Shown piece after piece: positions 3,985 through 60,852 of a DNA stretch of 64,000 nucleotides. Position 1 is the first letter of the stretch. Each line of letters starts with the position of its first letter. The stretch comes from an uncultured Clostridia bacterium (GTDB lineage: Bacteria; Bacillota; Clostridia; Christensenellales; CAG-314). The DNA lies in assembly GCA_947053925.1 (NCBI GenBank), contig CAMRUG010000006.1:4350-68349 (forward strand). The letters are read 5' to 3'. The notes below the pieces were generated by a model, which was not told the DNA's origin, did no database searches, and worked only from the letters and a program-made list of their open reading frames with translations. A program made the position numbers and the translations under genes.

Positions 3985-4040
3985 GGTAATGAAACCGCTT
4001 ACGGCTCGGCAATTTTTGTTGCAAAGGACGACAATAATAG
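3985..4040 (-). repeat. terminator-adjacent dispersed repeat, copy E
   Basis: The minus strand reads ATTATTGTCGTCCTTTGCAACAAAAATTGCCGAGCCGTAAGCGG..., immediately after the T-run of the 4040-4070 terminator. Confidence 0.7.
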
Positions 4041-4070
4041 AAAAAGCCCCTGCTACCTACGCAAGGGCTT
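4040..4070 (-). terminator. intrinsic terminator of the sigma/peptidase operon
   Basis: Stem AAGCCC(C)TGC / GCA(A)GGGCTT followed on the minus strand by T5. Confidence 0.6.
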
Positions 4071-4182
4071 TGTGCCGCAAATTTGTCAGTCGCCTACGGC
4101 TAGCGAACATTGTTTTAAAAACAATCTCTCTTTTTAAATAAATTTACTTTGTGTAAATAACCGTGTTTGTTACTTTATTGCA

Positions 4183-8137: not shown

Positions 8138-8515
8138 GGGGGTGTTTGTAAGATTCGCCCGACGTTAAAGGATATTTGATAAGCGTACCGCAGTGCATCT
8201 GCGTTAAAAATGCAAACTTAAATTAAACGCTAATAATAGCACAAATACAAGCCGTTCTTACGGAATGGCTTACGCCGCTTAATTATACCGGCTCGTAGGC
8301 TTTCGCTTTTTTGCGTGGCGGAATGTCCTGCGTCATAATACGCAGATAGAATATTAGCGGATGCGACAAAACGTTGGTATTTGAAATTTAATTTGTTGCG
8401 GACAACGGTTGGTTTGTTTGTTTTCCGTCCGTTGCGACTCAAAAATAAACTGTGTACGGAGAAAGTCTTATAGTCTTGCGTTGGTACGCGGGTGCAAGTC
8501 CCGCCACCTCCACCA
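8138..8515 (+). ncRNA. ssrA: tmRNA (SsrA)
   Basis: The 5-prime GGGGGTG pairs with the 3-prime CACCTCC-ACCA, including a G3:U pair. The T-arm GGTACGCGGGTGCAAGTCCCGCC is tRNA-like. An internal tag frame at 8229-8282, GCT AAT AAT ... TAC GCC GCT TAA, encodes ANNSTNTSRSYGMAYAA. Confidence 0.9.
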
Positions 8516-23466: not shown

Positions 23467-23497
23467 ACGTACTCGACACTGAATTTAACAATAAAAA

Positions 23498-23530
23498 ACG
23501 GCAATGATAAATGTTTCATTGTCGTTTTTA
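23498..23530 (+). terminator. intrinsic terminator
   Basis: ACGGCAATGA / TCATTGTCGT stem followed by T5. Confidence 0.7.
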
Positions 23531-23586
23531 TTATCTTTGCAAGCAAAACCGTCGAGACGTTACTAGGCTGAGACGTTTTTTATAAC
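23526..23586 (+). repeat. terminator-adjacent dispersed repeat, copy G
   Basis: TTTTTATTATCTTTGCAAGCAAAACCGTCGAGACGTTACTAGGCTGAGACGTTTTTTAT. Here the hairpin arms are AAAAC(C)GTC / GACGTTTT. Confidence 0.6.
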
Positions 23587-26420: not shown

Positions 26421-26653
26421 AAAACACCTATATGTACTCAAATCTATAAATCTGTTAAAATTAAGTTTATATATACAAATTTTACAACAAAACAATTTTG
26501 CAGTCAACAGGTAACGGGAAAACGTGTAACGCATATTTCCGTACAGCGTACCCACCATACGGCGTATGTTCGATGACCTAAACAAAAACCCACTAGAAGC
26601 CTATTTTTGACTTCTAACGGGTTTTGGGTAAAGATATTGCAACCTAAAACGAA

Positions 26654-27829
26654 TTATTTCTTGACTTTGAGCGCCTCAAATTCTAATCGTAAAGATGGAC
26701 TGTTTTTTGTGAGCTTTTTTATTGTCAAATCTTCTGCTTTGCTATTTGCAGTAATCAGTTGTTTACTTGTTCCCAACAATTCTTCTTTGACTTTTTCAAG
26801 ATGGTTTATTGTTTTATCAATTTCCGCAACTGCGTTATCAAACTTATTTTTGGCGCGCTTTATATTTCCTGCCAAATCGTTTTTAAATCTCGTTAATTCA
26901 TCTTCAAAATTCGTAATATCAACATTTTGTTTTTGCATTGTTGCGATGGTCCTTTTATACTCCAAGGAATTCATCGCCTCATTACGTAGCAGAGATATAA
27001 TAGGAATAAAAAATTGCGGACGTATTACGTACATTTTAGGGTATTTGTGCGACACATCGACAATACCCGAGTTATATAATTCGCTGTCGGCTTCCAACAT
27101 TGAAACAAGTATGGCGTACTCGCATTCTTTCTCAGTCCTGTCCTTATCTAATTCCTTAAAAAAATCCTCATTTTTCTTTTTGGTGGCAGTAGCGTCGGCT
27201 TCATTTTTCATTTCAAACATTATTGAAAGAATTTCCGTTCCGTCATCGTCGTTAATCTTAAAAATATAGTCGCCTTTACTTCCAGTGCGCGAATCGTTGT
27301 CTTTTTCAAAAAATGCATTTCTGAATCCTATAGAGCGCATTTTTTCAAATTCAGTTTGACAATGCTGTTCTAAACTTTCTCCCAACACTTTAACAGACTG
27401 TTTTGCTTTGAAATCTTTATACTGTGCAATTAACTCATCCTTCATTTTTAATTGTATCTCATATTGTCTTTTCGTTTCACTTTCACGAATTTCATATTCC
27501 TTTTCGGCAATATCTAAGCGACTTTTAAGCGTCGTAACTTCCTTATCCTTTGCGACAAGTTCCTTTTCCTTGTTTTTTAATGCGTTTTCGACAGCTATTT
27601 TCTTGCCATCCTCGTTTCTATTGATTATTTCATTAAGTTTTTGTATCTCTATTTCATACTTTAACGATGTCGATTCGATTGCGGATTGTCTTTCTGCCTC
27701 CCATAGAGCCTTCATTTCCTTAATCTTTTTTTCAAATTCCTTATCTCTAACTTGCAAGGCAATTTTTTCATAACTTGACTCGCCAAGTTTAAAGCTTTCT
27801 CCGCATTTTGGACATTTAATTTCGTTCAT
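26654..27829 (-). CDS. DUF2130-family protein (zinc-ribbon start, long coiled coil, C-terminal nuclease-like domain)
   Basis: Begins IKCPKCGESFKL, followed by ~200 aa of Glu/Lys-rich coiled coil, then the conserved DYIFK...FEMKNE region. Confidence 0.7.
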   Translation of the reverse strand: MNEIKCPKCGESFKLGESSYEKIALQVRDKEFEKKIKEMKALWEAERQSAIESTSLKYEIEIQKLNEIINRNEDGKKIAVENALKNKEKELVAKDKEVTTLKSRLDIAEKEYEIRESETKRQYEIQLKMKDELIAQYKDFKAKQSVKVLGESLEQHCQTEFEKMRSIGFRNAFFEKDNDSRTGSKGDYIFKINDDDGTEILSIMFEMKNEADATATKKKNEDFFKELDKDRTEKECEYAILVSMLEADSELYNSGIVDVSHKYPKMYVIRPQFFIPIISLLRNEAMNSLEYKRTIATMQKQNVDITNFEDELTRFKNDLAGNIKRAKNKFDNAVAEIDKTINHLEKVKEELLGTSKQLITANSKAEDLTIKKLTKNSPSLRLEFEALKVKK

Positions 27830-27904
27830 AAACTCCTCCTTTGTTTATTTAATAGAACGTATTATACAATTTAATATTGCTACTAAAAGAAAATATAATA
27901 ATTG

Positions 27905-28084
27905 TTATTCGGCAAGATTTTTCTTTGCTTTCTTTATATCTGCCGTCAAACGCATATATTCTTGTCGATATTTTGCTTGCCCGTGTTCGTGCTTGTAAAG
28001 GTATTTATTGCTTTTTAATTGCTCAAATTCCTTTTGCCAAATTGCAAGGTTTTCTGCCCATTGTTGTTTAGTGTTTTTTACCAT
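27905..28084 (-). CDS. small helical protein (59 aa), hypothetical
   Basis: It is below the track cutoff. The ATG is preceded by GAGGAGG. It overlaps the stop of an even smaller acidic ORF at 28078-28152 (ATGGTAA junction). Confidence 0.35.
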   Translation of the reverse strand: MVKNTKQQWAENLAIWQKEFEQLKSNKYLYKHEHGQAKYRQEYMRLTADIKKAKKNLAE

Positions 28085-28411
28085 TCTTCGTCCTCCTCAA
28101 ATTTGTCAGTGTCTAACTCGTCCCAAATGCACAAGTCGTCGATTTCGTCCATTGTCGTGCAGATGTTGTGTCCGAAGTAGGGACATTACGCCGTATAGAA
28201 AAATCAAACGTGTTGATAAAATTTTTCGATGAAAACCATAAAACAATAAAGCCAACTTATAATACTACAAATGTACTTTTGACATATATACTTATCGTAT
28301 ATTATCTCAGCAAAAACCCACTTTTTTGTCAGAAAATTTAAAACTTGTTTTGTTTTATAGCGACAATGTGATTAAAGTTTGTATAAAATTTTCAAATTAA
28401 ATCGAAGTACT

Positions 28412-28594
28412 TTAAATAATTTCTCGAAATTCTTTTGCATTACACTCTATAATTTCCCTACTACTGTCTTTGTATAAGACAACAAGTGAATACATAGACA
28501 AATTATATGTCGCCAATATTTTTGTTTCTTCGCTTATTCGCACTCCTAAATCTTTGTCTTTGCAAACCTCCTTATTGTTGCTTAATCCAAACAT
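28412..28594 (-). CDS. hypothetical 60-aa ORF divergent from the XRE gene
   Basis: The ORF exists but has no clear Shine-Dalgarno sequence. Its position, divergent from an HTH gene across a palindrome-bearing region, is the only support. Confidence 0.25.
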   Translation of the reverse strand: MFGLSNNKEVCKDKDLGVRISEETKILATYNLSMYSLVVLYKDSSREIIECNAKEFREII

Positions 28595-28625
28595 ATTTTA
28601 TTTTCGAAACTACTATAGCATAAAT

Positions 28626-28688
28626 TATGGTTATATGCAACCATATAAAAGTAAAAAATAATAGTAATCTATGGTTATACATAACTAT
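28626..28688. promoter_or_regulatory. two operator-like palindromes
   Basis: TATGGTT-ATATGC-AACCATA (28626-28645, perfect 7-bp arms) and TATGGTT-ATACAT-AACTATT (28670-28688, imperfect), 44 nt apart in the divergent region. Confidence 0.5.
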
Positions 28689-28701
28689 TTGGAGTGCTAT
28701 A

Positions 28702-28947
28702 ATGGAAAATTCGGTTAATAGAGCAGTTGCATTAAGGATTGCTGAATTATTGGAACAAAAACAAATTACAAAATATCGTTTAGCAATGAACAGCGGTATA
28801 ACGCATTCGACTCTTAAAAATATTATGCACGAAACAATAAAAGACAGTCTATTGTCGACTGTCATTTTAATTGCAGGTGGTTTTGATATGACTGTTAGTG
28901 AATTTTTAGATAGTCCGTTGTTTGATGAAGCAAATTTGAATATATAG
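28702..28947 (+). CDS. XRE-family helix-turn-helix protein
   Basis: RIAELLEQKQITKYRLAMNSGITHSTLKNIM. ATG at 28702 after GGAG. Confidence 0.7.
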   Translation: MENSVNRAVALRIAELLEQKQITKYRLAMNSGITHSTLKNIMHETIKDSLLSTVILIAGGFDMTVSEFLDSPLFDEANLNI

Positions 28948-29046
28948 AACATAAATAATTTTAATGTCTCTTCATATTGAGTTGTAGTATTTATTACTTC
29001 AAAACCAACAAATTTAAGTGAAGAGTGAAGAATAAGGATAAAATAA

Positions 29047-29080
29047 AATCGGCAAATATACTACGAAATTTGCCGATTTT
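29047..29080. terminator. bidirectional intrinsic terminator
   Basis: 10-bp stem ATCGGCAAAT / ATTTGCCGAT flanked by an A-run and a T-run. Confidence 0.7.
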
Positions 29081-29157
29081 TGGTAGAGACAGTAAGACTC
29101 GAACTTACGACCTCTCGCATGTGAAGCGAGCGCTCTAACCGACTGAGCTATGCCTCC
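29081..29157 (-). tRNA. tRNA-Val (anticodon CAC)
   Basis: The cloverleaf was read by eye: acceptor GGAGGCA/TGTCTCT, D-arm GCTC..GAGC, anticodon stem CTCGC/GCGAG with loop TTCACAT, T-arm GTAAG-TTCGAGT-CTTAC. CCA is encoded. Confidence 0.9.
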
Positions 29158-29297
29158 GTTCTCATTATCAATACTATACGCCTAAAACAAAATTTTTGCA
29201 ATTATTTCAACGTAAATTTACCGTTTTTTTAACATATTGCTTATTGTAATCGACATTAACGCTTGCTATTCATTATTGCCTATGCTAAAATTTCAAT

Positions 29298-29957
29298 ATG
29301 AAACATTTACGCTACCCTTTTAGCAACAACGTAGAGCAAACTACCCGAAAAAAGCGCCTTGCACTGCTTAGCAAGCAAGACAAAAAGCATTACCGCGTAA
29401 GACAAGTTTTAATATACTGCAATCTGGCCTTACTAATTTGTTTATTTGGCGCGCTGATATACTTGTGCTTTTTCATAGGGCATTGCGAAGAATTGAGTGA
29501 ATTCTTGCGTATAGCCTTGATAATTATTAACATATTGTGCATCGTCATTTTACCGACGGCGATTTGCGCGTTATTGTTCGCATTGATTGATAAACTGTTA
29601 CCGGAAATCCCTCTTCCCAAGATAAATAAGACAGTTGTTTATTCCTGCGCGGCACCTTTAAAAAAGTTTTACAAAATCGGCAATAACTTTATCGTAACAA
29701 AATGCTATCGATCAACCGTCGACGGATTGCAAAATAAAGATTTAATGCTGTTCGTATATAACGAAGAATTGCGTATAGTTAACGATTTTACCTCAACTGT
29801 AAAAGACTTCGGATGCTACGCGTTTAGCAAAAGCGAATTGACATATTATTACGACGAACTCAACGGCAAACGAGTTACCGTAATAAAATGCCTCGATACC
29901 GTTTTCATATTGGGTAAAAGAGCAAAACAGTTTATTACAAAAAATTTATTCAATTAA
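29298..29957 (+). CDS. hypothetical membrane protein (2 TM helices plus a C-terminal soluble domain)
   Basis: 219-aa ORF with two hydrophobic segments. No family recognised. Confidence 0.45.
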   Translation: MKHLRYPFSNNVEQTTRKKRLALLSKQDKKHYRVRQVLIYCNLALLICLFGALIYLCFFIGHCEELSEFLRIALIIINILCIVILPTAICALLFALIDKLLPEIPLPKINKTVVYSCAAPLKKFYKIGNNFIVTKCYRSTVDGLQNKDLMLFVYNEELRIVNDFTSTVKDFGCYAFSKSELTYYYDELNGKRVTVIKCLDTVFILGKRAKQFITKNLFN

Positions 29958-30214
29958 AACTGTCCTTTGATAAAAACATAAAATAAAAATACGCCAACTA
30001 TCGGCGATACATTTGTTGTCTATATACCTAAAAAAGATAATTTAATGAGCAATAAGTCAATACTGATAAATTGATAGAGAAGAATTTACTGCAACGCAAT
30101 AAAGAATATATAGAGTCCTTACTTTTTTAATATATATTTACAAATATCCGCTCAGAACACATTTAGACTTAAAAGCATTTGTATAATCTTAAACCTTATA
30201 ACATAATTTATAAT

Positions 30215-30247
30215 AAAAACCCACCGAAACGTTATCGGTGGATTTTT
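30215..30247 (+). terminator. intrinsic terminator
   Basis: CCACCGA-aacgtta-TCGGTGG followed by T5. Confidence 0.65.
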
Positions 30248-30304
30248 ATTGTCGCCATTTGCAACTAAAATTGTCGATGTTCTGTTAAGCGAAAACAACT
30301 TTTA
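30247..30304 (+). repeat. terminator-adjacent dispersed repeat, copy A
   Basis: TTATTGTCGCCATTTGCAACTAAAATTGTCGATGTTCTGTTAAGCGAAAACAACTTTTATT. Confidence 0.7.
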
Positions 30305-30362
30305 TTGTCGTCCTTTGCGACATAAAAAGTTGAACGCCGGTAAACGAAAACAATTTTTATTA
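30303..30362 (+). repeat. terminator-adjacent dispersed repeat, copy B (tandem to A)
   Basis: TTATTGTCGTCCTTTGCGACATAAAAAGTTGAACGCCGGTAAACGAAAACAATTTTTATTA. Confidence 0.65.
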
Positions 30363-34322: not shown

Positions 34323-34455
34323 TTACTAATAAAAAGCACGTTCGACCAAACTAGCTTATTATTAAACAGTAAAACACCTTTTTTTTAAAATGAAACAAGC
34401 CTTAACAAATAAGTTAACGCTATTAGCCATATTTTAGTTGTACAGGAGTTTTAAA

Positions 34456-35136
34456 TTGTTTACAACTTTACTTAACTTTTTACGGCGGATATTTTTTATG
34501 ACGGGATACTTTTCTAACGGAAGTTATCCCCAACCGCTTTCCGCCGAAGAAGAAGCGCGCTGTTTACAGCGTATGAAAGAGGGTAGCGAAGAAGCGCGCA
34601 ACAAACTCATCTGCCACAATTTACGCCTTGTTGCGCACATTGCCAAAAAATACGGCAAAAATGACCTTGACGACCTTATTTCAATAGGTTCGATAGGACT
34701 TATAAAAGGCGTGGAAAGCTACTCTACCGAGCGAGGCACCACCCTTGCAACATATCTTGCACGCTGTATCGAAAACGAAATTCTTATGACGCTGCGCTCT
34801 AACAAACGGTATCAGAATACGGTATACTTAAACAATACGCTCGGCGTTGACAACGACGGCAACGAGTACACTCTAATGGACGTTTTGGCAACTAACGAGG
34901 ACAGCGTGTTCCACCAAGCGGAGATGTCAATACTGCGGCAGAATTTACTCAAAATTATCCGCGAACGGCTTAACGACCGCGAACAGAAAATCATACTTAT
35001 GCGTTACGGACTGGAAGAAAACGCAACGCCTATGACGCAACTGGAAACAGCAAAAAAACTCGGTATAAGCCGCAGTTATATTTCGCGCATAGAAACCCGC
35101 GCGCTAGACAAAATAAAACAGTACATACAAGATTAG
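34456..35136 (+). CDS. sigK: sporulation sigma factor K (pro-sigma-K)
   Basis: YPQPLSAEEE...HNLRLVAHIAKKY...GLIKGVESY...ARCIENEILM...GISRSYISRIE closely parallels SigK as I recall it. A hydrophobic pro-sequence is present. The probable start is the TTG at 34456, 7 nt after AGGAG (the track start is the TTG at 34438). Confidence 0.8.
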   Translation: MFTTLLNFLRRIFFMTGYFSNGSYPQPLSAEEEARCLQRMKEGSEEARNKLICHNLRLVAHIAKKYGKNDLDDLISIGSIGLIKGVESYSTERGTTLATYLARCIENEILMTLRSNKRYQNTVYLNNTLGVDNDGNEYTLMDVLATNEDSVFHQAEMSILRQNLLKIIRERLNDREQKIILMRYGLEENATPMTQLETAKKLGISRSYISRIETRALDKIKQYIQD

Positions 35137-37007: not shown

Positions 37008-37023
37008 TAATCAGTCAATAACC

Positions 37024-37088
37024 GACAAAAAATATTGTCTCGGTTAAACAACGGCGATAATTCTTGTTGCAAATCCGACAAACGTAAA
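37024..37088 (-). repeat. terminator-adjacent dispersed repeat, copy H
   Basis: The minus strand reads TTTTTACGTTTGTCGGATTTGCAACAAGAATTATCGCCGTTGTTTAACCGAGACAATATTTTTT, directly after the 37086-37115 hairpin. Confidence 0.65.
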
Positions 37089-37115
37089 AATGCCGACCTT
37101 TTAGGTCGGCATTTT
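37086..37115. terminator. bidirectional intrinsic terminator
   Basis: A5-TGCCGACC-tttta-GGTCGGCA-T4, between convergent genes. Confidence 0.75.
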
Positions 37116-42969: not shown

Positions 42970-43587
42970 TTATTCGTCATCTTGCTTAAAGTTATGTATT
43001 ACTTGGTTTACAGTGTCAAAGCCGTATCCTCGGCTGATTAAATAGCGTTGAAGTTTTTGCAATGTTTTAACGTCTGACGGTTTTCCTTTCATATACTTTA
43101 CTGCAAGCTGCGCCGCAGCATTCACACTCCTTTCGCCGTCCTGTACGCAATACTTGTCGATAAGCGCTTTAGAAATGCCCTTTACGCTTAATTCCTGTTT
43201 GAGTCTGTATTCGCCCTTGCTTTGTGAATTTTGCTCGACATAAAGCCTTGCATACGTTTCGTCATCCAAGTATTTCAATTCTTTCAGCCTGTCGACTACA
43301 TTTGAAACAACATCGGGACTATACCCTTTTCCTGTAAGATATTCGCGCATTTGCTTGCACGTCTTCATACAACGCGACAAATAGTTTACCGCCCTTTCAA
43401 ACGCAACCGATTTTTCGCTGTCGAAAACTGCCTGCGCAAGTTGCTCTTCACTGACTTCTCTGCCTATTTTAAGCCCGAGTTTCATTACCGTAAGCATTTC
43501 TAACCCGAAAGCAAATTCGCCGTCAATGTAAACGTTGGCGCGCGATTTATTGTTTTTTTGAATTTGCATATCCGTTATCTTCGGCAT
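42970..43587 (-). CDS. recX: RecX family regulatory protein
   Basis: VYIDGEFAFGL...AVNYLSRCMKTCKQMREYLTGKGY...VVDRLKELKYLDDETYA repeat architecture. Confidence 0.8.
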   Translation of the reverse strand: MPKITDMQIQKNNKSRANVYIDGEFAFGLEMLTVMKLGLKIGREVSEEQLAQAVFDSEKSVAFERAVNYLSRCMKTCKQMREYLTGKGYSPDVVSNVVDRLKELKYLDDETYARLYVEQNSQSKGEYRLKQELSVKGISKALIDKYCVQDGERSVNAAAQLAVKYMKGKPSDVKTLQKLQRYLISRGYGFDTVNQVIHNFKQDDE

Positions 43588-43994
43588 TTTATCTCCTAAT
43601 TCCGTCCTGCACTATTTAAACAATTATGTATCAATGTAAAACACACAAACATATTATTCCCTGTTGAAAGTATTAAGCAATGTCAAAATAAGTAATTACA
43701 GTAATCTTTGACATAGGATATTGCTTATTTGAGAAACCGACATATATCCGCTACAAATCCATTTAAATGTTTTACAGAAATGTGATTTTACAAATACCTA
43801 CTGCGTGCGTGATACAATATAATAACAGTCGGTTTATCGAGTTAGTTGTGATTTAACGTCATTAACTGTTGTTATGCATATCATTATACTACCCGCCGCG
43901 CAAAATTTCAAGCGCGTCGACCGACAAACGGATACAATATCTTATCTATGAAACTTTTTTTAACATATCACGGATTTACTGACAGTAAAACTCA

Positions 43995-44052
43995 ATGTGA
44001 AACTGTCGCCGTTTAACAGCGGCTTGACAATTTTTGCTCAAAGGATGATAAG
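43995..44052 (-). repeat. terminator-adjacent dispersed repeat, copy D
   Basis: The minus strand reads CTTATCATCCTTTGAGCAAAAATTGTCAAGCCGCTGTTAAACGGCGACAGTTTCAC, after a weak hairpin plus T6. Confidence 0.65.
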
Positions 44053-44170
44053 AAAAAAGCGGCTTGCTTTAAGCAAACACGCATTCTGTCTGTACTCTCA
44101 CGTTACATATTTTCAATTCAAAAACAAATACAAATGCAATATTTATATCCGATAGAAATATATTGCGACA

Positions 44171-44585: not shown

Positions 44586-44650
44586 TTAAAATAAAAATTG
44601 TCATCGCTTAACAGCGGCTCGACAATTTTTGTTGCAAAGGTAGACAATAA
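44586..44650 (-). repeat. terminator-adjacent dispersed repeat, copy C
   Basis: The minus strand reads TTTTATTGTCTACCTTTGCAACAAAAATTGTCGAGCCGCTGTTAAGCGATGACAATTTTTATTTT, with the 10-bp hairpin AAAAATTGTC / GACAATTTTT. Confidence 0.75.
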
Positions 44651-44685
44651 AAGACTGCTTACCGAAATTAAGTAAGCAGTTTTTA
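44648..44685. terminator. bidirectional terminator downstream of rpsU
   Basis: ACTGCTTAC / GTAAGCAGT stem with T-runs on both strands. Confidence 0.7.
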
Positions 44686-48445: not shown

Positions 48446-48475
48446 CATAAAATAGGCAAACGGATAACGTTTGCC
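48446..48475 (-). terminator. intrinsic terminator
   Basis: GGCAAACG-gataa-CGTTTGCC, T-rich on the minus strand. Confidence 0.6.
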
Positions 48476-48502
48476 TATTCCTTACTAAAGTTTATTTGTC
48501 GG

Positions 48503-49090
48503 TTACAATTTTATTTCGACGTTCGCCTCTCCGTACTTAGTTGAAAAGGCAATCATTTGTCCGTCTTGCTGAATAAATGCGTAATCGTTTATTTGCAGCA
48601 TAAACGGAGCATTCTCGTCAAGAGTATAGTTGTCGATATTTTCTATATAAAACGTACTTATCGTTTCTATGTCCGCAGTGATATAAGTATAATAAGGCAT
48701 CCAAAAATCATTCTTATCCTTATATTCTGTTATTGCATTAGATTTGACGGCGTTTAGCCTGTCTATTATAGTGAAAAACGGAGTATCGAATATCCATTCT
48801 ACTTCTAAAGAAGGATGGTCGTTATATTTGTCTACAATATAAAACTTTTCCTTTCCTTCATATATTCCTATTAAGAAATAAGGTTGCTTAAACTTCTTCA
48901 AGGATTCTTTATTATTTTCTTTTATCGACACTTTTTTCTCATCTATGTTACAAACCGAAAATACTTTTTCAATGCCGTATTGTCGTTGTACTAATTCTAT
49001 GGCTTTATTTATACTAAAGTCGTAATCACAGGAAGCCAAACAAAACAGCAACGCTATTAACAACGGTATTATAAAAAATTTTCTTTTCAT
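48503..49090 (-). CDS. hypothetical lipoprotein, paralogue 1
   Basis: Lipobox LASCDY. Its C-terminal ~55 aa are nearly identical to those of paralogue 2. Confidence 0.6.
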   Translation of the reverse strand: MKRKFFIIPLLIALLFCLASCDYDFSINKAIELVQRQYGIEKVFSVCNIDEKKVSIKENNKESLKKFKQPYFLIGIYEGKEKFYIVDKYNDHPSLEVEWIFDTPFFTIIDRLNAVKSNAITEYKDKNDFWMPYYTYITADIETISTFYIENIDNYTLDENAPFMLQINDYAFIQQDGQMIAFSTKYGEANVEIKL

Positions 49091-49247
49091 ACATTTCCTC
49101 GTTTATACACTCTTATGCTTGCAGAACTTTTAATCTTACTCATATCGAAGTTACAATATTTTGATAAATCGTCTCCGTCGGCAACTTTTAAAAACAGTTC
49201 GTAGAAAAGTTGGTCGCTCTTGTTATGATTATTAAAATATCTACAAC
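49091..49247 (-). pseudogene. duplicated 3-prime fragment of the cysteine-peptidase gene
   Basis: About 157 nt align base-for-base, with scattered substitutions, to 49874-50030 (the last ~50 codons of the 403-aa gene and its junction). No start codon or upstream coding sequence is present. Confidence 0.65.
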
Positions 49248-49297
49248 ATCGTAAACGTTATCTGTTTGCATATTTATTCTTACTATTTATTCAACAG

Positions 49298-49873
49298 TTA
49301 CAATTTTATTTCGATGTTCGCTTCTCCGTATTTCAGAGAAAAACATATCATTTGCCCGTCTTGCTGAATAAATACATAATCGTTTATTTGCAACATAAAC
49401 GGAGCATTCTCGTCAAGAGTATAGTTGTCGATATTTTCTATATAAAACGTCCTTATCGTATCTATGTCTGCAGTTACATAAGTATAATACGGGTATACCC
49501 AGTCTTCATTTTTCACTATTCCGTTCTTGATAACAGAATTTAATTTTTCGATGATAGTTAAAAACGGCGTATCAAATATCCATTCCACTTCCAACGACCG
49601 ATGATCGTTATAATCTTCTACTACATAATATTTTTCCTGTCCTTGACAAGTACATACGATAAAATAAGGATCATAAAACTTTTCCAATAATTTACCGCTT
49701 TGTTTATCGTAAACTTTTTTAGCGTTGATATGACATACTGAGTATACCTCTTCCGCATTATACTTTTGCTTAACTAGTTCGATAGCATCAACAAAACCGA
49801 AGCCGTAATCGCAAGATGTCAAATAAAGCAACAACGCTAGAAATAACGGTATTACCAAAAATTTTCTTTTCAT
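49298..49873 (-). CDS. hypothetical lipoprotein, paralogue 2
   Basis: Lipobox LTSCDY. ATG at 49873 after GAGGAAG. The track start at 49885 overlaps the upstream stop. Confidence 0.6.
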   Translation of the reverse strand: MKRKFLVIPLFLALLLYLTSCDYGFGFVDAIELVKQKYNAEEVYSVCHINAKKVYDKQSGKLLEKFYDPYFIVCTCQGQEKYYVVEDYNDHRSLEVEWIFDTPFLTIIEKLNSVIKNGIVKNEDWVYPYYTYVTADIDTIRTFYIENIDNYTLDENAPFMLQINDYVFIQQDGQMICFSLKYGEANIEIKL

Positions 49874-49881
49874 ACACTTCC

Positions 49882-51093
49882 TCATTTATACACTCTTATG
49901 CTAGCAGAACTTTTAATTTTGCTCATATCGAAGTTAAAATATTTTGCCGCACCGTCCCCATCTGCAACTTTTAAAAACAGTTCGTAATAAAGTTGGTCGC
50001 TTTTGTTGTGATAATTAAAATATCTGTAACCAAACCCTACAAATGTATGAGCCGATCCATAATGCCTAATATAATTGACGGTAAAATTATAATATCCTAA
50101 TGTTTTTTTGTCGGGTTGATCATCGGGAAGCGTATCGGCAAAATAATACGTTGAACAGGTAATAAAGACGGGTATACCTGCGTCGATACTTTGCCGCATT
50201 TCATAGTAGGATAATCCCGTTTTTCTTTCTACCTTATATCCCTTTTCCTTGATCAGTTTTTCAAAACCTTTGTATCCGTCTGTCGGGATAGTTCCGCCCA
50301 CTCCGAAAAACCAGTTGGTGTTCATATAATCATAGAAGATATTGCCGTAAATTACTGATGTGTTTCCATTCATATCTCCATTAGGATACAATGAATCCCG
50401 ATCAATTTTCAGAAGTTGATTATTATAATACTTGTTCCAGTAGTTAAGCATAATAACACCCGCAACGTTAGCGCAATTGTATTCGTGAGTATTAACAGTA
50501 CTACTATACGCACAAGAAAAATCTTTAATTTCGTAACTAAGACTGTAAAAGTCTTTGCACTCGATATTCTTCACATAGTCTTCGCGCTTTCCTGTGCCGC
50601 ACGCCGCCGAATATGTCGGGAATTCAGCAGGCTTATAATCCGTTAAAACGGTCATTGTTTCGGCATCGTAGTAATTATTACCTTTTTTTATTATGTAATA
50701 TCCCAGCGACGGACAAATAAACATTCCGTCTTTGCCGTAAAATGCCGACGCTTCGTTAAAACTGATTTCAACTAATTTATAGTTTTCATCCATATAGAAG
50801 AAAATCGCGTACCCATGTATACTGTCGGCAGCAAAATCAATAACATATCCTGCCCACTGTTCGTTAGAATAAAACACTTCATCAACAAAGTATTCTGCTC
50901 CAAGCATATCGACATTCTCTTCCGATGCTGTACACTCTATCATTGATTGCATTTCAGCAAAAGCGCTTTCAGAAACTTGCGCCGACGCTTTCACCGCATT
51001 ATATGAAGCAATCCCGATTGTTAGTGAAAGAAGTATACATACCGCAATTATCATACTAGCAATTCTATTCCTTTTACATTTCAAGTCCACCAT
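49882..51093 (-). CDS. secreted papain-fold cysteine peptidase-like protein (paralogue of 4956-5777) with an extra N-terminal domain
   Basis: N-terminal TM/signal segment. Candidate Cys in HEYNCANVAG and His in GSAHTFVGFGY. RBS GGGGGT. Confidence 0.6.
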   Translation of the reverse strand: MVDLKCKRNRIASMIIAVCILLSLTIGIASYNAVKASAQVSESAFAEMQSMIECTASEENVDMLGAEYFVDEVFYSNEQWAGYVIDFAADSIHGYAIFFYMDENYKLVEISFNEASAFYGKDGMFICPSLGYYIIKKGNNYYDAETMTVLTDYKPAEFPTYSAACGTGKREDYVKNIECKDFYSLSYEIKDFSCAYSSTVNTHEYNCANVAGVIMLNYWNKYYNNQLLKIDRDSLYPNGDMNGNTSVIYGNIFYDYMNTNWFFGVGGTIPTDGYKGFEKLIKEKGYKVERKTGLSYYEMRQSIDAGIPVFITCSTYYFADTLPDDQPDKKTLGYYNFTVNYIRHYGSAHTFVGFGYRYFNYHNKSDQLYYELFLKVADGDGAAKYFNFDMSKIKSSASIRVYK

Positions 51094-51400
51094 TTTTTTA
51101 CCCCCTGCATTATCTCTACTTATAGAAAATGAACATTGTCCATCTATTCAGTAAAAAAATAGTATTATTGAAAGACTGGATTTGTAAATATAACTTTATT
51201 TTTTGTAACTTACCCTTTACGACAAAACACAATAAAACTCTTATTGAATATGTGTAGGGATAGTATATCATAATCTCAATGCTAAATCAATATACAAATA
51301 AAATTGCTTACTCTTAGCAATATCCTAACAATATCTCGCTGCTCAGCAAAAACCGACAATTAGAAATACCGTTTCGGTTTTTGCCGAAACGGTATTTGTG

Positions 51401-57348: not shown

Positions 57349-57371
57349 TTAAACAAAACGGATAAATCTTA

Positions 57372-57410
57372 ATCTGCGTTTCCGTATAATTTGGAAACGC
57401 AGATTTTTTA
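57372..57410 (+). terminator. intrinsic terminator
   Basis: 12-bp stem ATCTGCGTTTCC / GGAAACGCAGAT followed by T6. Confidence 0.8.
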
Positions 57411-57459
57411 TAGGTTTTTACCATAAAAGTTTCAGAGAAACCGTTCAGCGAAGATAATG

Positions 57460-57520
57460 TTTTATTGTGGTCCTTTCGCAACGAAACTTGTCTGTCGCCA
57501 ACTGCAATCTTAAATTCAAG
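57460..57520 (+). repeat. terminator-adjacent dispersed repeat, copy I
   Basis: TTTTATTGTGGTCCTTTCGCAACGAAACTTGTCTGTCGCCAACTGCAATCTTAAATT, about 50 nt after the terminator T-run. Confidence 0.55.
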
Positions 57521-57628
57521 CATTGCGTGTGTATGAACAAGCGCCAAGTCTTTATTTTAAAATTTACTCAACTTTGTTCCACCATTAAGCGAATACACAT
57601 TTTTCTTGTCGTCCTTTACACTGTACGA

Positions 57629-59061: not shown

Positions 59062-60852
59062 TTAGTCTTTTTTCAACTCCGCCTTTATACGGCGTACTCC
59101 CGATGACGAAGACTGTTCCTTTGTAATAACAAACCGCCCCAATTCTCCCGTATTCTCGGCGTGAGGCCCTCCGCAAATTTCCTTGCTGAAATCGCCCATT
59201 GTGTATACTTTTACCACTTCGCCGTATCTGTCGCCGAAAAGTCCTATTGCACCCGTCTTGCGCGCTTCCTCTATCGGTAATTCTTCGCAAGTAACAGGCA
59301 GTTTGCGCGCAATCGCTTCGTTTACAAGACGTTCGGTCTCGGCAATCTCATCCGCCGTCATAGGACGTGAAAAACTGAAATCGAAACGCAGACGTTCGGG
59401 AGTTATATTACTACCCTTTTGTTTAACTTCGTCGCCTAACACTCTGCGCAATGCCGCTTGCAACAAGTGCGTTGCCGTATGCAGATGGGTAGTTTCCACT
59501 CCGCCGCCTTCAGCCATACCGCCTTTAAAACGCTGTTCGCTGCCTGCGTGAGACTTTGCCTGATGTTCGGCAAACTTCTGTTTAAAGCCTTCTACGTCAA
59601 CGGTATATCCGTTTTCTTGGGCAAGTTCCACCGTCATCTCCACAGGGAAACCGAATGTGTCGTACAGTTTAAATGCCGTTCCGCCCGATACCGTTTTGGT
59701 CGGAATATGCGAGATAACTTTAAAAAATTCTTTTTCGCCCGCAACAAGCGTCTTTGTAAATTTTTCTTCTTCCTTGTTAAGTTCGTCTATAATTTTTGCG
59801 GAATTCTCCGTCAATTCGGGATAGGCGGTTTTGTATACTTCTATATACACTTTCGCAATTTCAACTATGCTTCCCTTAGGCATTCCGAGCGAATTTGCCT
59901 TTCGTACAGCCCGACGAATCAAACGGCGCAAAACGTAACCTTGGTCTACGTTACTAGGAGTAACGCCAACGGGGTCGCCGAGAAGAAACGTTGACGTGCG
60001 GATATGGTCGGCGATTATACGCATTGCCTTTGTCGTAACGTCGTCCTGTCCGTAAGTTTTGCCCGAAAGTTTTTCGATTTTTGCCAACGCGTCTTGAAAC
60101 AAGTCTATATCGTATACCGATTTCATTCCGTTTAAAACGCATACGGTACGCTCAAGTCCCATACCGGTATCGACGTTTTTCTGAGCAAGCGGCAGATATG
60201 TGCCGTCTGCCTGACGGTTAAACTGCATAAATACGTTATTCCATATTTCTAAGTACTTACCGCAGTCGCAACTAGGATCGCAATGCTCAGAGCACGCAGG
60301 TTTGCCCGTATCCCAAAAGATTTCCGTATCGGGTCCGCAAGGTCCAGTTGTGCCTGCTATCCACCAGTTGTTAGCCTTCGGAAGATAAAATATGCGCTCT
60401 TTGGGAATACCGCATTCCTCCCAAACTCTTGCCGAATCGACGTCGCGTTTTGCGTCATCATCGCCGGCAAAAACAGTTACCGACAAGCGGTTGACGTCCA
60501 AGCCTAAATAATCTTTTCCCGTCAAAAATTCGTAACTCCATTTTATCGACTGCTCGTTAAAGTAATCCCCTAGCGACCAGTTTCCTAACATTTCAAAAAA
60601 AGTAAGGTGAGAGTCATCACCGACTTCTTCTATATCGCCTGTTCTGACGCACTTCTGCACGTCGCAAAGGCGCGTTCCGTTAGGGTGTTTTGCTCCTAGC
60701 AAATAAGGTATTAACGGATGCATTCCCGCAGTAGTAAACAAAACTGACGGATCGTTTTCGGGGATAAGACTCGCCGACTTGATAACGGCGTGTCCGCGCT
60801 CTTTAAAAAAGCCTAAATATTTTTCTCTTAAGTATTGAGAAGTAATTTTCAT
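59062..60852 (-). CDS. alaS: alanine--tRNA ligase, compact form lacking a C-Ala domain
   Basis: Class II core (FTTAGMHP, GNWSLGDYF, GPCGPDTEIF) and an editing domain (HTATHLL ... CGGPH). The ORF stops about 30 aa after CGGPH, at 596 aa. Confidence 0.85.
   Translation of the reverse strand: MKITSQYLREKYLGFFKERGHAVIKSASLIPENDPSVLFTTAGMHPLIPYLLGAKHPNGTRLCDVQKCVRTGDIEEVGDDSHLTFFEMLGNWSLGDYFNEQSIKWSYEFLTGKDYLGLDVNRLSVTVFAGDDDAKRDVDSARVWEECGIPKERIFYLPKANNWWIAGTTGPCGPDTEIFWDTGKPACSEHCDPSCDCGKYLEIWNNVFMQFNRQADGTYLPLAQKNVDTGMGLERTVCVLNGMKSVYDIDLFQDALAKIEKLSGKTYGQDDVTTKAMRIIADHIRTSTFLLGDPVGVTPSNVDQGYVLRRLIRRAVRKANSLGMPKGSIVEIAKVYIEVYKTAYPELTENSAKIIDELNKEEEKFTKTLVAGEKEFFKVISHIPTKTVSGGTAFKLYDTFGFPVEMTVELAQENGYTVDVEGFKQKFAEHQAKSHAGSEQRFKGGMAEGGGVETTHLHTATHLLQAALRRVLGDEVKQKGSNITPERLRFDFSFSRPMTADEIAETERLVNEAIARKLPVTCEELPIEEARKTGAIGLFGDRYGEVVKVYTMGDFSKEICGGPHAENTGELGRFVITKEQSSSSGVRRIKAELKKD

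Follow-up and report, generated by a model that had tools for sequence, protein, structure and literature searches.

A Short Repeat Next to Intrinsic Terminators in an Uncultured Clostridia Bacterium, a Candidate Mobile Element

In this study, we analyzed a stretch of 64,000 nucleotides (nt) from an uncultured Clostridia bacterium (hereafter the window; contig CAMRUG010000006.1 of assembly GCA_947053925.1), with a focus on positions 30247-30362, which consist of two head-to-tail units of a dispersed repeat of 56-65 nt. Copies of this repeat nearly always lie just behind the hairpins of intrinsic terminators, and we read it as a species-restricted, non-autonomous mobile repeat resembling REP and MITE elements, which would insert after a terminator hairpin with its T-tracts and would recreate its own target. 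Mobility is deduced here from the distribution of the copies, their junctions and the make-up of their arrays, and we put the probability of this reading at about one half. An original prediction, made from the sequence alone, had named a small mobile element that targets terminators, or a REP-like element, among several possible roles. This role gives the best fit, considering the fixed junction at the T-run, the shared orientation with the upstream gene, the array neighbors that are not each other's nearest relatives, and the restriction to one species together with the existence of unoccupied terminators.

Copies of the Repeat and Their Position After Terminators

A seed profile for nhmmer was made from the six best copies of the repeat, and a covariance model of 12 copies (R1) was run on the window with the filters off. 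The latter recovered seven copies at E<=6e-5 (3985-4040, 37024-37088, 43995-44052 and 44586-44650 on the minus strand; 23526-23586, 30247-30304 and 30303-30362 on the plus strand). Nine copies had been claimed in the original prediction, and the sequence described there is present at all nine positions, these seven among them. The eighth, 57460-57520 on the plus strand, is weak when taken alone (E=0.22-0.45) and turned out to be one unit of a decayed array, being flanked by three collinear partial matches at 57435-57463 (3' half), 57580-57606 (3' half) and 57601-57620 (5' start). The ninth, a diverged copy at 1503-1558 on the minus strand, is preceded by a terminator at 1566-1587 but was not detected by either method (R1 E=3.5; no nhmmer match even in a 100-nt search space); its resemblance is by eye and its membership of the family is unconfirmed. 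An additional diverged copy, N1, which had been missed before, was found at 51290-51366 on the minus strand (R1 23.1 bits, E=0.03 over the window; nhmmer E=0.013 in the local region).

The strongest regularity is the junction between repeat and terminator. At all nine loci of the window a terminator-type hairpin lies upstream on the same strand, with 5-12 nt from its stem to the ATTGTC that opens the repeat, which bears out the earlier claim that the element begins at the T-run of a terminator. A loose scan of both strands of the window yielded 91 hairpin-plus-T-run sites. A single locus would by chance begin at most 12 nt away from such a site on the correct strand with a computed probability of ~0.0085, and for the seven secure window loci jointly the value is ~3e-15. 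The element occupies about a third of the clear terminators between genes in the window. Four additional loci were obtained from the JGI metagenome Ga0137307, and an upstream terminator hairpin was found at three of them, with the 5-12 nt junction at two (L021 and L025). At L023 a strong terminator is located ~58 nt upstream of the copy, and the stretch between the two contains no unit recognizable by profile, so that a degenerate unit proposed there was discarded. At L017 there is no convincing hairpin upstream, and this is the sole copy without a clear upstream terminator.

The orientation of the repeat follows the genes as well. Among 13 loci, seven are co-directional junctions and six are convergent gene ends, while none is situated in a divergent (promoter) spacer. 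In 7/7 co-directional cases the element runs in the same direction as the genes (p=1/128), and at the window loci it always shares its strand with the upstream gene. GC skew keeps a negative sign across the whole window, indicating a single replichore, and copies occur on both strands; orientation thus follows transcription and not replication. An IS200/IS605-type mechanism was considered and is unlikely for the same reason. The gene calls also agree with the original prediction that four of eight loci (23526, 30247/30303, 37024, and 57460) are at convergent junctions, and its conclusion that the element is not simply a promoter is correct, because about half of all loci are convergent.

The best copy, M5 (44586-44650, minus strand; R1 88.6 bits, E=8e-14), has the layout TTATTGTCTACC-TTTGCAAC-AAAAATTGTC-(18-nt loop)-GACAATTTTTATT and lies between the rpsU intrinsic terminator (hairpin 44654-44680, minus strand), whose T-run continues into it, and a gene of 127 amino acids (aa), whose ATG is 32 nt beyond the element. 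Copy M4 (43995-44052, minus strand; R1 64.2 bits, E=1.7e-9) is located 3' of this 127-aa gene and 5' of the recX promoter and leader; the hairpin scan places a terminator-like hairpin directly 5' of it (44059-44082, minus strand), and its stem retains a T.G wobble. In the tandem pair, copy A (30247-30304, plus strand; R1 73.1 bits) begins at the T-run of the hairpin at 30221-30241 (plus strand), which is the tRNA-Val terminator in another strain, and copy B (30303-30362, plus strand; nhmmer E=4e-15 as a seed member, R1 E=6e-5) starts within the T-run after the hairpin of A itself. Copy M2 (3985-4040, minus strand; R1 49.3 bits, E=7e-7) follows a strong terminator at 4043-4071 (minus strand; 11 pairs, 6 of them G-C). 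The 5' two-thirds of M2 are intact, with a different short hairpin, GCGGT-TTCATT-ACCGC, in place of the 3' arm, and two positions differ in its orthologue in the strain contig L020.

Copy M3 (37024-37088, minus strand; R1 55.9 bits, E=5e-8) is at a convergent junction, behind a terminator hairpin at 37091-37111 (minus strand; -14.8 kcal/mol); beyond its end, at about 37015-37024, the 5' box starts anew (TTTGTCGG). The diverged copy P1 (23526-23586, plus strand), a member of the model at 57.4 bits, was also recovered by the six-copy nhmmer profile though outside its seed (E=3.5e-4), and the T-run of the terminator of an EamA-family gene (23494-23529, plus strand) leads into it. N1, which reads CTAATTGTCGG-TTTTTGC...ATTGCT-aagagt-AGCAATTTTATTT, lies directly 3' of the dnaJ terminator (hairpin 51364-51397, minus strand, by the hairpin scan). 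Finally, the decayed array at 57406-57625 (plus strand) comprises about four units; within a search space of 524 nt, the profile matched collinearly at four places, each time in part (E=3e-4 to 0.04), in the order 3' half, 5' part, 3' half, 5' start, with 57460-57520 as the second unit. It begins at the T-run of the terminator 57371-57405, which explains the gap of ~50 nt that the original prediction had noticed between a hairpin and the copy at 57460.

Some observations concern the surroundings of the copies. The region 26431-30207 is a strain-variable island containing a DUF2130 gene, small helix-turn-helix genes and a 219-aa gene; ~620 nt stand in place of these 3.8 kb in L022, a contig of Ga0137307 that is ~98% identical. 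In L022, tRNA-Val has the opposite orientation and is immediately followed by the terminator in front of copies A and B, and the loop of this terminator hairpin is inverted between the two strains. In L017 (1326-1620, the lepA-hemN spacer of Ga0137307), another short repeat flanks the copy, with GTCGCTCGTGCATTC twice upstream and an imperfect inverted copy (GAATGCACTCGC) just downstream.

Head-to-Tail Arrays

Head-to-tail arrangements were found in the pair A/B, in L025a/b, in the 57406-57625 array and in the restart behind M3. In the first three, the next unit starts in the T-run after the hairpin of the preceding unit, and this is the same junction as that of the first unit with the terminator of the gene. 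Neighboring units are only 70-72% identical (A-B 72%; L025a-b 70%), as opposed to 81-86% for some units that are not neighbors (A-M5 81%; L025b-L023 86%), and the nearest relative of copy B is L025b, at 81%. Since tandem neighbors are not closest relatives, we infer that arrays were extended by independent additions rather than through local duplication. Such additions at T-runs constitute the main argument that a hairpin plus T-run is the address of the element, and that this address is copied at its 3' end. In-place decay was observed in the 3' arm of M2, in the 57406-57625 array and in L025a.

Architecture of the Repeat and Covariation of the Stem

The consensus of 12 copies is TTTTTTATTGTCGTCC-TTTGCAAC-AAAAATTGTCGAG-n-CGCTGnTAAGCGAA-GACAATTTTTATT. 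Two of its parts are constant, the 5' box (TTATTGTCG) and the TTTGCAAC block; the 3' part is a hairpin in which A5-TTGTC / GACAA-T5 enclose a loop of 18 nt, with TTTTTATT after it. There are three ATTGTC boxes, two of them direct and 22 nt apart and one inverted 24 nt further; the two direct ATTGTCG boxes and the inverted GACAAT that closes a 10-bp stem had been described correctly in the original prediction. The stem was specified by hand and its pairs were counted, after RNAalifold on the 12 copies had predicted no consensus structure. In the 10-bp stem AAAAATTGTC/GACAATTTTT, 82.6% of cells are paired, compared with 42-57% after a shift of the 3' partner by 1-3 columns. Compensatory, two-sided changes affect four pairs and seven cells, with pairing retained across five or more independent double changes, and the compensated stems include TTGCC/GGCAA (L021), TTACT/AGTAA (L017), TTGTT/AACAA (L025b and B) and CCGTC/GACG (P1, in full AAAACCGTC/GACGTTTT). 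Box 1 (ATTGTCG) and TTTGCAAC, the most conserved blocks, stay unchanged when the stem changes. In these two blocks it is thus the sequence that is conserved; in boxes 2 and 3 it is their pairing. In the L017 and L021 copies, the stem is extendable by GCAACAA/TTGTTGC.

The boxes might alternatively be read as a DNA-binding array of three ATTGTC sites for a regulator or nucleoid protein, in one version for Spo0A, with TGTCGA as a 0A box, but we consider this very improbable. The two most conserved blocks, box 1 and TTTGCAAC, co-vary with nothing, which favors this reading, and the boxes are spaced by about two helical turns. The organism had also been suggested to sporulate, which is plausible: a SigK-type sigma factor (34438-35136) scores 286 bits against a cut-off of 252, although the CwlD-like amidase that is also present falls below its curated cut-off, and with both of them Spo0A is probable in this organism. 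However, none of the 73 TGNCGAA sites of the window is inside a copy, where the boxes read TGTCGAG, TGTCGAT, TGCCGAG and TACTGAG, and the second box changes together with its inverted partner (TTGCC/GGCAA, TTACT/AGTAA), as expected when pairing is kept rather than a recognition sequence; the 0A-box idea of the original prediction thus found no support. Moreover, dispersed copies are 75-86% identical over the whole element, spacers included, which indicates common descent instead of convergent sites, and half of the loci are at convergent ends, where there is nothing to regulate.

The same boxes resemble promoter hexamers. As a portable promoter cassette, the element would drive the downstream gene from TTGTCG (box 2) and GACAAT (box 3), 17 nt apart, or from TCGACA-18-GACAAT on the opposite strand, which we likewise regard as very improbable. 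The sense pair can be read directly from the sequence, and a consensus scan marked opposite-strand pairs in M5 and A with 9/12 matches. M5 is, in addition, the only locus without room for another promoter before the next gene; little but the element separates the rpsU terminator from the 127-aa gene, and relatives have there a different sequence with TATAAT. Against such a cassette, 9/12 matches are equally common in shuffled sequence (50-70 per 20 kb), 6/13 loci face the 3' end of a convergent gene, and M2, M4 and N1 have separate and better promoters between the element and the next gene; furthermore, co-variation between '-35' and '-10' hexamers is not expected. Sigma-54, ECF and sporulation-sigma promoter readings of TTTGCAAC were tried by eye, by comparison with consensus sequences, and were rejected because their spacings misfit.

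A further contact was noted between TCGN after box 1 and N'CGA before box 3, which are compatible in 9/9 copies that keep both motifs (3 C-G, 1 U-A, 1 G-C and 4 wobble pairs; partner permutation p~0.016). The contact could form a pseudoknot with the main stem or an alternative helix, and these counts are suggestive only.

The main rival is a 3'-end RNA module selected by the host, in which a read-through transcript would gain a second hairpin plus U-run, serving as a back-up terminator (for the other strand, a terminator of the convergent gene) or as a block to 3' exonucleases, and in which copies would be spread by recombination and kept by selection. We judge it unlikely. Consistent with such a module are the position just 3' of a terminator in sense orientation, a hairpin with an A-run and a T-run on both sides like those of bidirectional terminators, the upholding of stem pairing by compensatory changes, the possible pairing of the loop with the 5' TCGN, and the hairpins of M5 and M4, which are the only two that satisfy the terminator scan, at about -9 to -10 kcal/mol. 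An intrinsic terminator has a stable G+C-rich stem and a short loop before its U-run; here the U-run is present, but the stem is AT-rich and the loop has 18 nt, making a poor terminator. The RNA of M5 folds at -14.9 kcal/mol (z=-3.1), yet a clearly better fold than in shuffles was obtained in just 3/11 copies, with z from +1.3 to -1.5 in the other eight, and the failure of RNAalifold to find a consensus structure points the same way. The stem mismatches (4 G.U-type versus 7 A.C-type) give no RNA-strand signature, indicating neither which strand folds nor whether it folds as RNA or as DNA. Copies decay in place, orthologues diverge between strains like ordinary DNA, and a selected module leaves unexplained that relatives do without the element. 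The back-up terminator or 3'-end cassette of the original prediction is possible as a side effect, with the hairpin plus T-run of the best copies at ~-9 kcal/mol in the terminator scan, but the fold of most copies is no better than that of shuffled sequence.

Distribution Across Strains and Relatives

The genes for alanine--tRNA ligase (AlaRS) and MtaB also occur in GCA_949747335.1 and in many gut-type assemblies. The metagenome Ga0137307 contains a strain ~98% identical to the window, with orthologues of four window copies and five further units at four loci, located behind lepA, an esterase gene, an M23 peptidase gene and an unannotated gene. Orthologous copies differ between strains at 2-5 positions per 60 nt, against an overall identity of ~98%. 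M5 is present in all contigs of the same species. Contigs of independent short-read assemblies break inside copies, namely L009, L013 and L015, which start in M5, and L032, which ends in M2, as is expected of a multi-copy repeat. The repeat is frequent enough to fragment metagenome-assembled genomes (MAGs) of its source species.

Beyond the species, no copy was found in ~115 kb of five related species (L026, L027, L028, L034/L035, which are two contigs of one species, L037, and L038), where ~12 loci would be expected from the window's density of eight secure loci in about 72 kb. These relatives share 93% (L034/L035) or 92% (L037 and L038) identity in AlaRS, or about 72% in MtaB (L026, L027, and L028). 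An exact-pattern scan with a 19-base core returned six chance matches in unrelated phyla and no real match among 185,579 species-representative genomes, in which the source species is absent or masked. There was also no match in the viral contigs scanned, nor in a BLAST search of the consensus against 72,556 plasmids.

Spacers of relatives illustrate unoccupied terminators. The hairpin of the rpsU terminator is orthologous in L026 and L028, where unrelated sequence, and not copy M5 as in the window, follows up to a 126-aa gene. Similarly, the convergent spacer between the FTCD_C gene and the 293-aa gene has 90 nt with one terminator only in the closest relative, L034, and 281 nt including the array in the window. 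Both comparisons suggest that the terminator came first and that the element was added later. A different direct repeat of ~50 nt (...CTAACTTTTGAGRGCGTATAAG...) was noticed in the spacer between rpsU and the 126-aa gene (L026 12229-12727 and L028 5609-5939), upstream of the rpsU terminator, with two copies in L026, one in L028 and none in the other loci covered.

Mobility and Its Likely Mechanism

If the repeat is mobile, a copy would be added 3' of the hairpin of an intrinsic terminator, at the end of the T-tract and in the orientation of the terminated gene. As the 3' end of the element is itself a hairpin plus T-tract, each copy would recreate the target, later copies could stack head-to-tail, and the arrays would then decay. 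An enzyme encoded elsewhere in the genome would presumably recognize the two constant blocks by their sequence but the hairpin by its structure, whether in single-stranded DNA or in RNA. Any consequences for the host are probably side effects; among them could be an additional weak hairpin that resembles a bidirectional terminator and, possibly, a promoter-like TTGTCG-17-GACAAT pair between rpsU and the 127-aa gene.

Several points weigh against mobility. In the window and the other sequence of the species covered here (64 kb plus ~50 kb), no transposase, RAYT or reverse transcriptase was found. A target-site duplication is not demonstrable: TTTT(T)ATT stands on either side of the copies, variants on one side do not clearly recur on the other, and the flanks are too T-rich and too similar for this comparison to be informative; in addition, the 3' T-run pairs with the internal A-run and hence belongs to the element. 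Nor is there a co-varying terminal inverted repeat, as the 6-nt inverted pair consists of box 1 (ATTGTC) and box 3 (GACAAT), and a change in box 3 is followed by box 2 and not by box 1. No presence/absence polymorphism was observed, every copy checked being fixed in all contigs of the same species, including the ~98%-identical strain, and the spacers of relatives are too diverged (MtaB 72-78%) for an empty site exact to the base. The occurrence of copies on both strands of one replichore argues against a lagging-strand mechanism of the IS200/IS605 type, and compensatory changes in a quasi-palindrome can also come from templated repair without selection.

More tentatively, mobile insertion at terminators may represent an undescribed kind of mini mobile element, whose enzyme would place a unit of 60 nt at the hairpin plus T-tract of an intrinsic terminator in sense orientation, producing self-extending arrays. 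Recognition of the hairpin and T-tract would probably take place in single-stranded DNA or where the transcript is released. If so, a DNA parasite distinct from group II introns as well as from classical insertion sequences (IS) and MITEs would be using terminators as a safe-harbor address. Small extragenic repeats are common, and their choice of site is rarely clear. Should the targeting be confirmed, the repeat would offer a simple natural case of structure-directed insertion at harmless sites, a marker for terminators and for strain typing in this uncultured lineage of gut Clostridia, and a known cause of assembly breaks in its MAGs. If it is merely a decaying repeat, its practical value is limited to annotation.

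Other Features of the Window

A tmRNA gene at 8138-8515 (plus strand) was identified by Rfam with 113.6 bits and was not reported by ARAGORN, whose output for the window was tRNA-Val at 29081-29157 (minus strand) only. Two adjacent paralogous 195-aa genes (48503-49090 and 49298-49885, minus strand) within 48469-50030 share 73-86% DNA identity over ~640 nt, representing a local tandem gene duplication. Upstream of recX, at 43587-43911 (minus strand), a strong promoter-like TTGAAA-17-TATAAT (43911-43883) precedes the ATG by ~300 nt, and a segment of the leader (AACAACNGTTAATGA) is common to the relative L026; this may be a conserved 5' leader. In addition, 59062-60852 (minus strand) encodes a short AlaRS of the 596-aa type (NCBIfam PRK01584, 936 bits), with 87-93% identity across many uncultured Clostridia MAGs.

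Comparison With Known Families

The original prediction had not recognized the repeat as a known noncoding RNA family, and our searches agree with it: Rfam 15 at the gathering threshold yielded tmRNA and tRNA only for the whole window. In E-value mode, two copies gave best scores of 28 and 24 bits, compared with gathering thresholds of 59-60, from different and unrelated families for each copy. A literature search on small repeats that target terminators returned general reviews of MITEs and SPRITEs only. Two other leads were discarded. On the reverse strand, TGTTGCAAAG resembles the terminal repeat of the IS6 family, but the motif is internal, most units have no second inverted copy, and there was no plasmid or IS match. 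An attC site of integrons was excluded as well, since no GTTRRRY partner is present and copies follow housekeeping genes (rpsU, lepA, and dnaJ) and not cassettes.

REP and BIME elements of proteobacteria are mobilized by RAYT, a Y1 transposase of the HUH type. The repeat shares with them a short extragenic hairpin, a location at gene 3' ends and in convergent gaps, numerous and often clustered copies, and restriction to one lineage. In contrast to them, it has no 5' GTAG and no G+C-rich stem, its 5' end being TTATTGTCG; its clusters are direct and head-to-tail instead of inverted pairs (REPINs); its position is fixed relative to a separate terminator hairpin; and its host is a Firmicute, with no RAYT seen in the sequence of the species covered here (64 kb plus ~50 kb). 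Bacterial MITEs, including Correia/NEMIS, RUP and bcr1 of the B. cereus group, and the pneumococcal SPRITE are small non-coding dispersed repeats (PMC3049150, PMC10969869). The present element resembles them in being small, non-coding, dispersed and species-restricted, in its terminator-like hairpins (as in SPRITE) or promoter-like hexamers, and in the insertion of one element next to or into another. However, most MITEs are longer than its 56-65 nt, its sole terminal inverted repeat has 6 nt (ATTGTC/GACAAT) with sides that do not co-vary, the orientation is strictly tied to the upstream gene, and a duplication of the target site is not demonstrable. The element lacks the defining sequence features of REPs, and neither defining feature of MITEs is clear.

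MIRUs of mycobacteria are interspersed tandem repeats of 40-100 nt, which overlap stop and start codons within operons. They are similar in forming short head-to-tail arrays across many intergenic spacers, oriented with the flanking genes. Their copy number varies between strains, whereas here the arrays follow terminators, and neighboring units are old and dissimilar. Elements of the IS30 family, such as IS1630 of Mycoplasma fermentans, target terminator-like inverted repeats; they are likewise comparable in their use of terminator hairpins as targets and in tandem structures formed via their own ends, but they duplicate the target hairpin and encode a transposase, while here the hairpin is not duplicated and the unit is non-coding.

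The choice of target has a counterpart in class C group II introns, which home 3' of intrinsic terminators in sense orientation. Both use a terminator stem-loop plus T-rich tail as the target, with insertion just after it and in the orientation of the gene. The repeat is about ten times too short for such an intron, no reverse transcriptase is nearby, and no Intron_gpII or group-II match was obtained at E<=10, nor any domain V/VI; GAGCCG...GCGA resembles domain V but is without the pairing 3' half. Taken together, the element falls within the broad known kind of small extragenic repeats that includes REP, MITE, SPRITE and MIRU, and it combines this nature with a target preference like that of group IIC introns, without being an intron.

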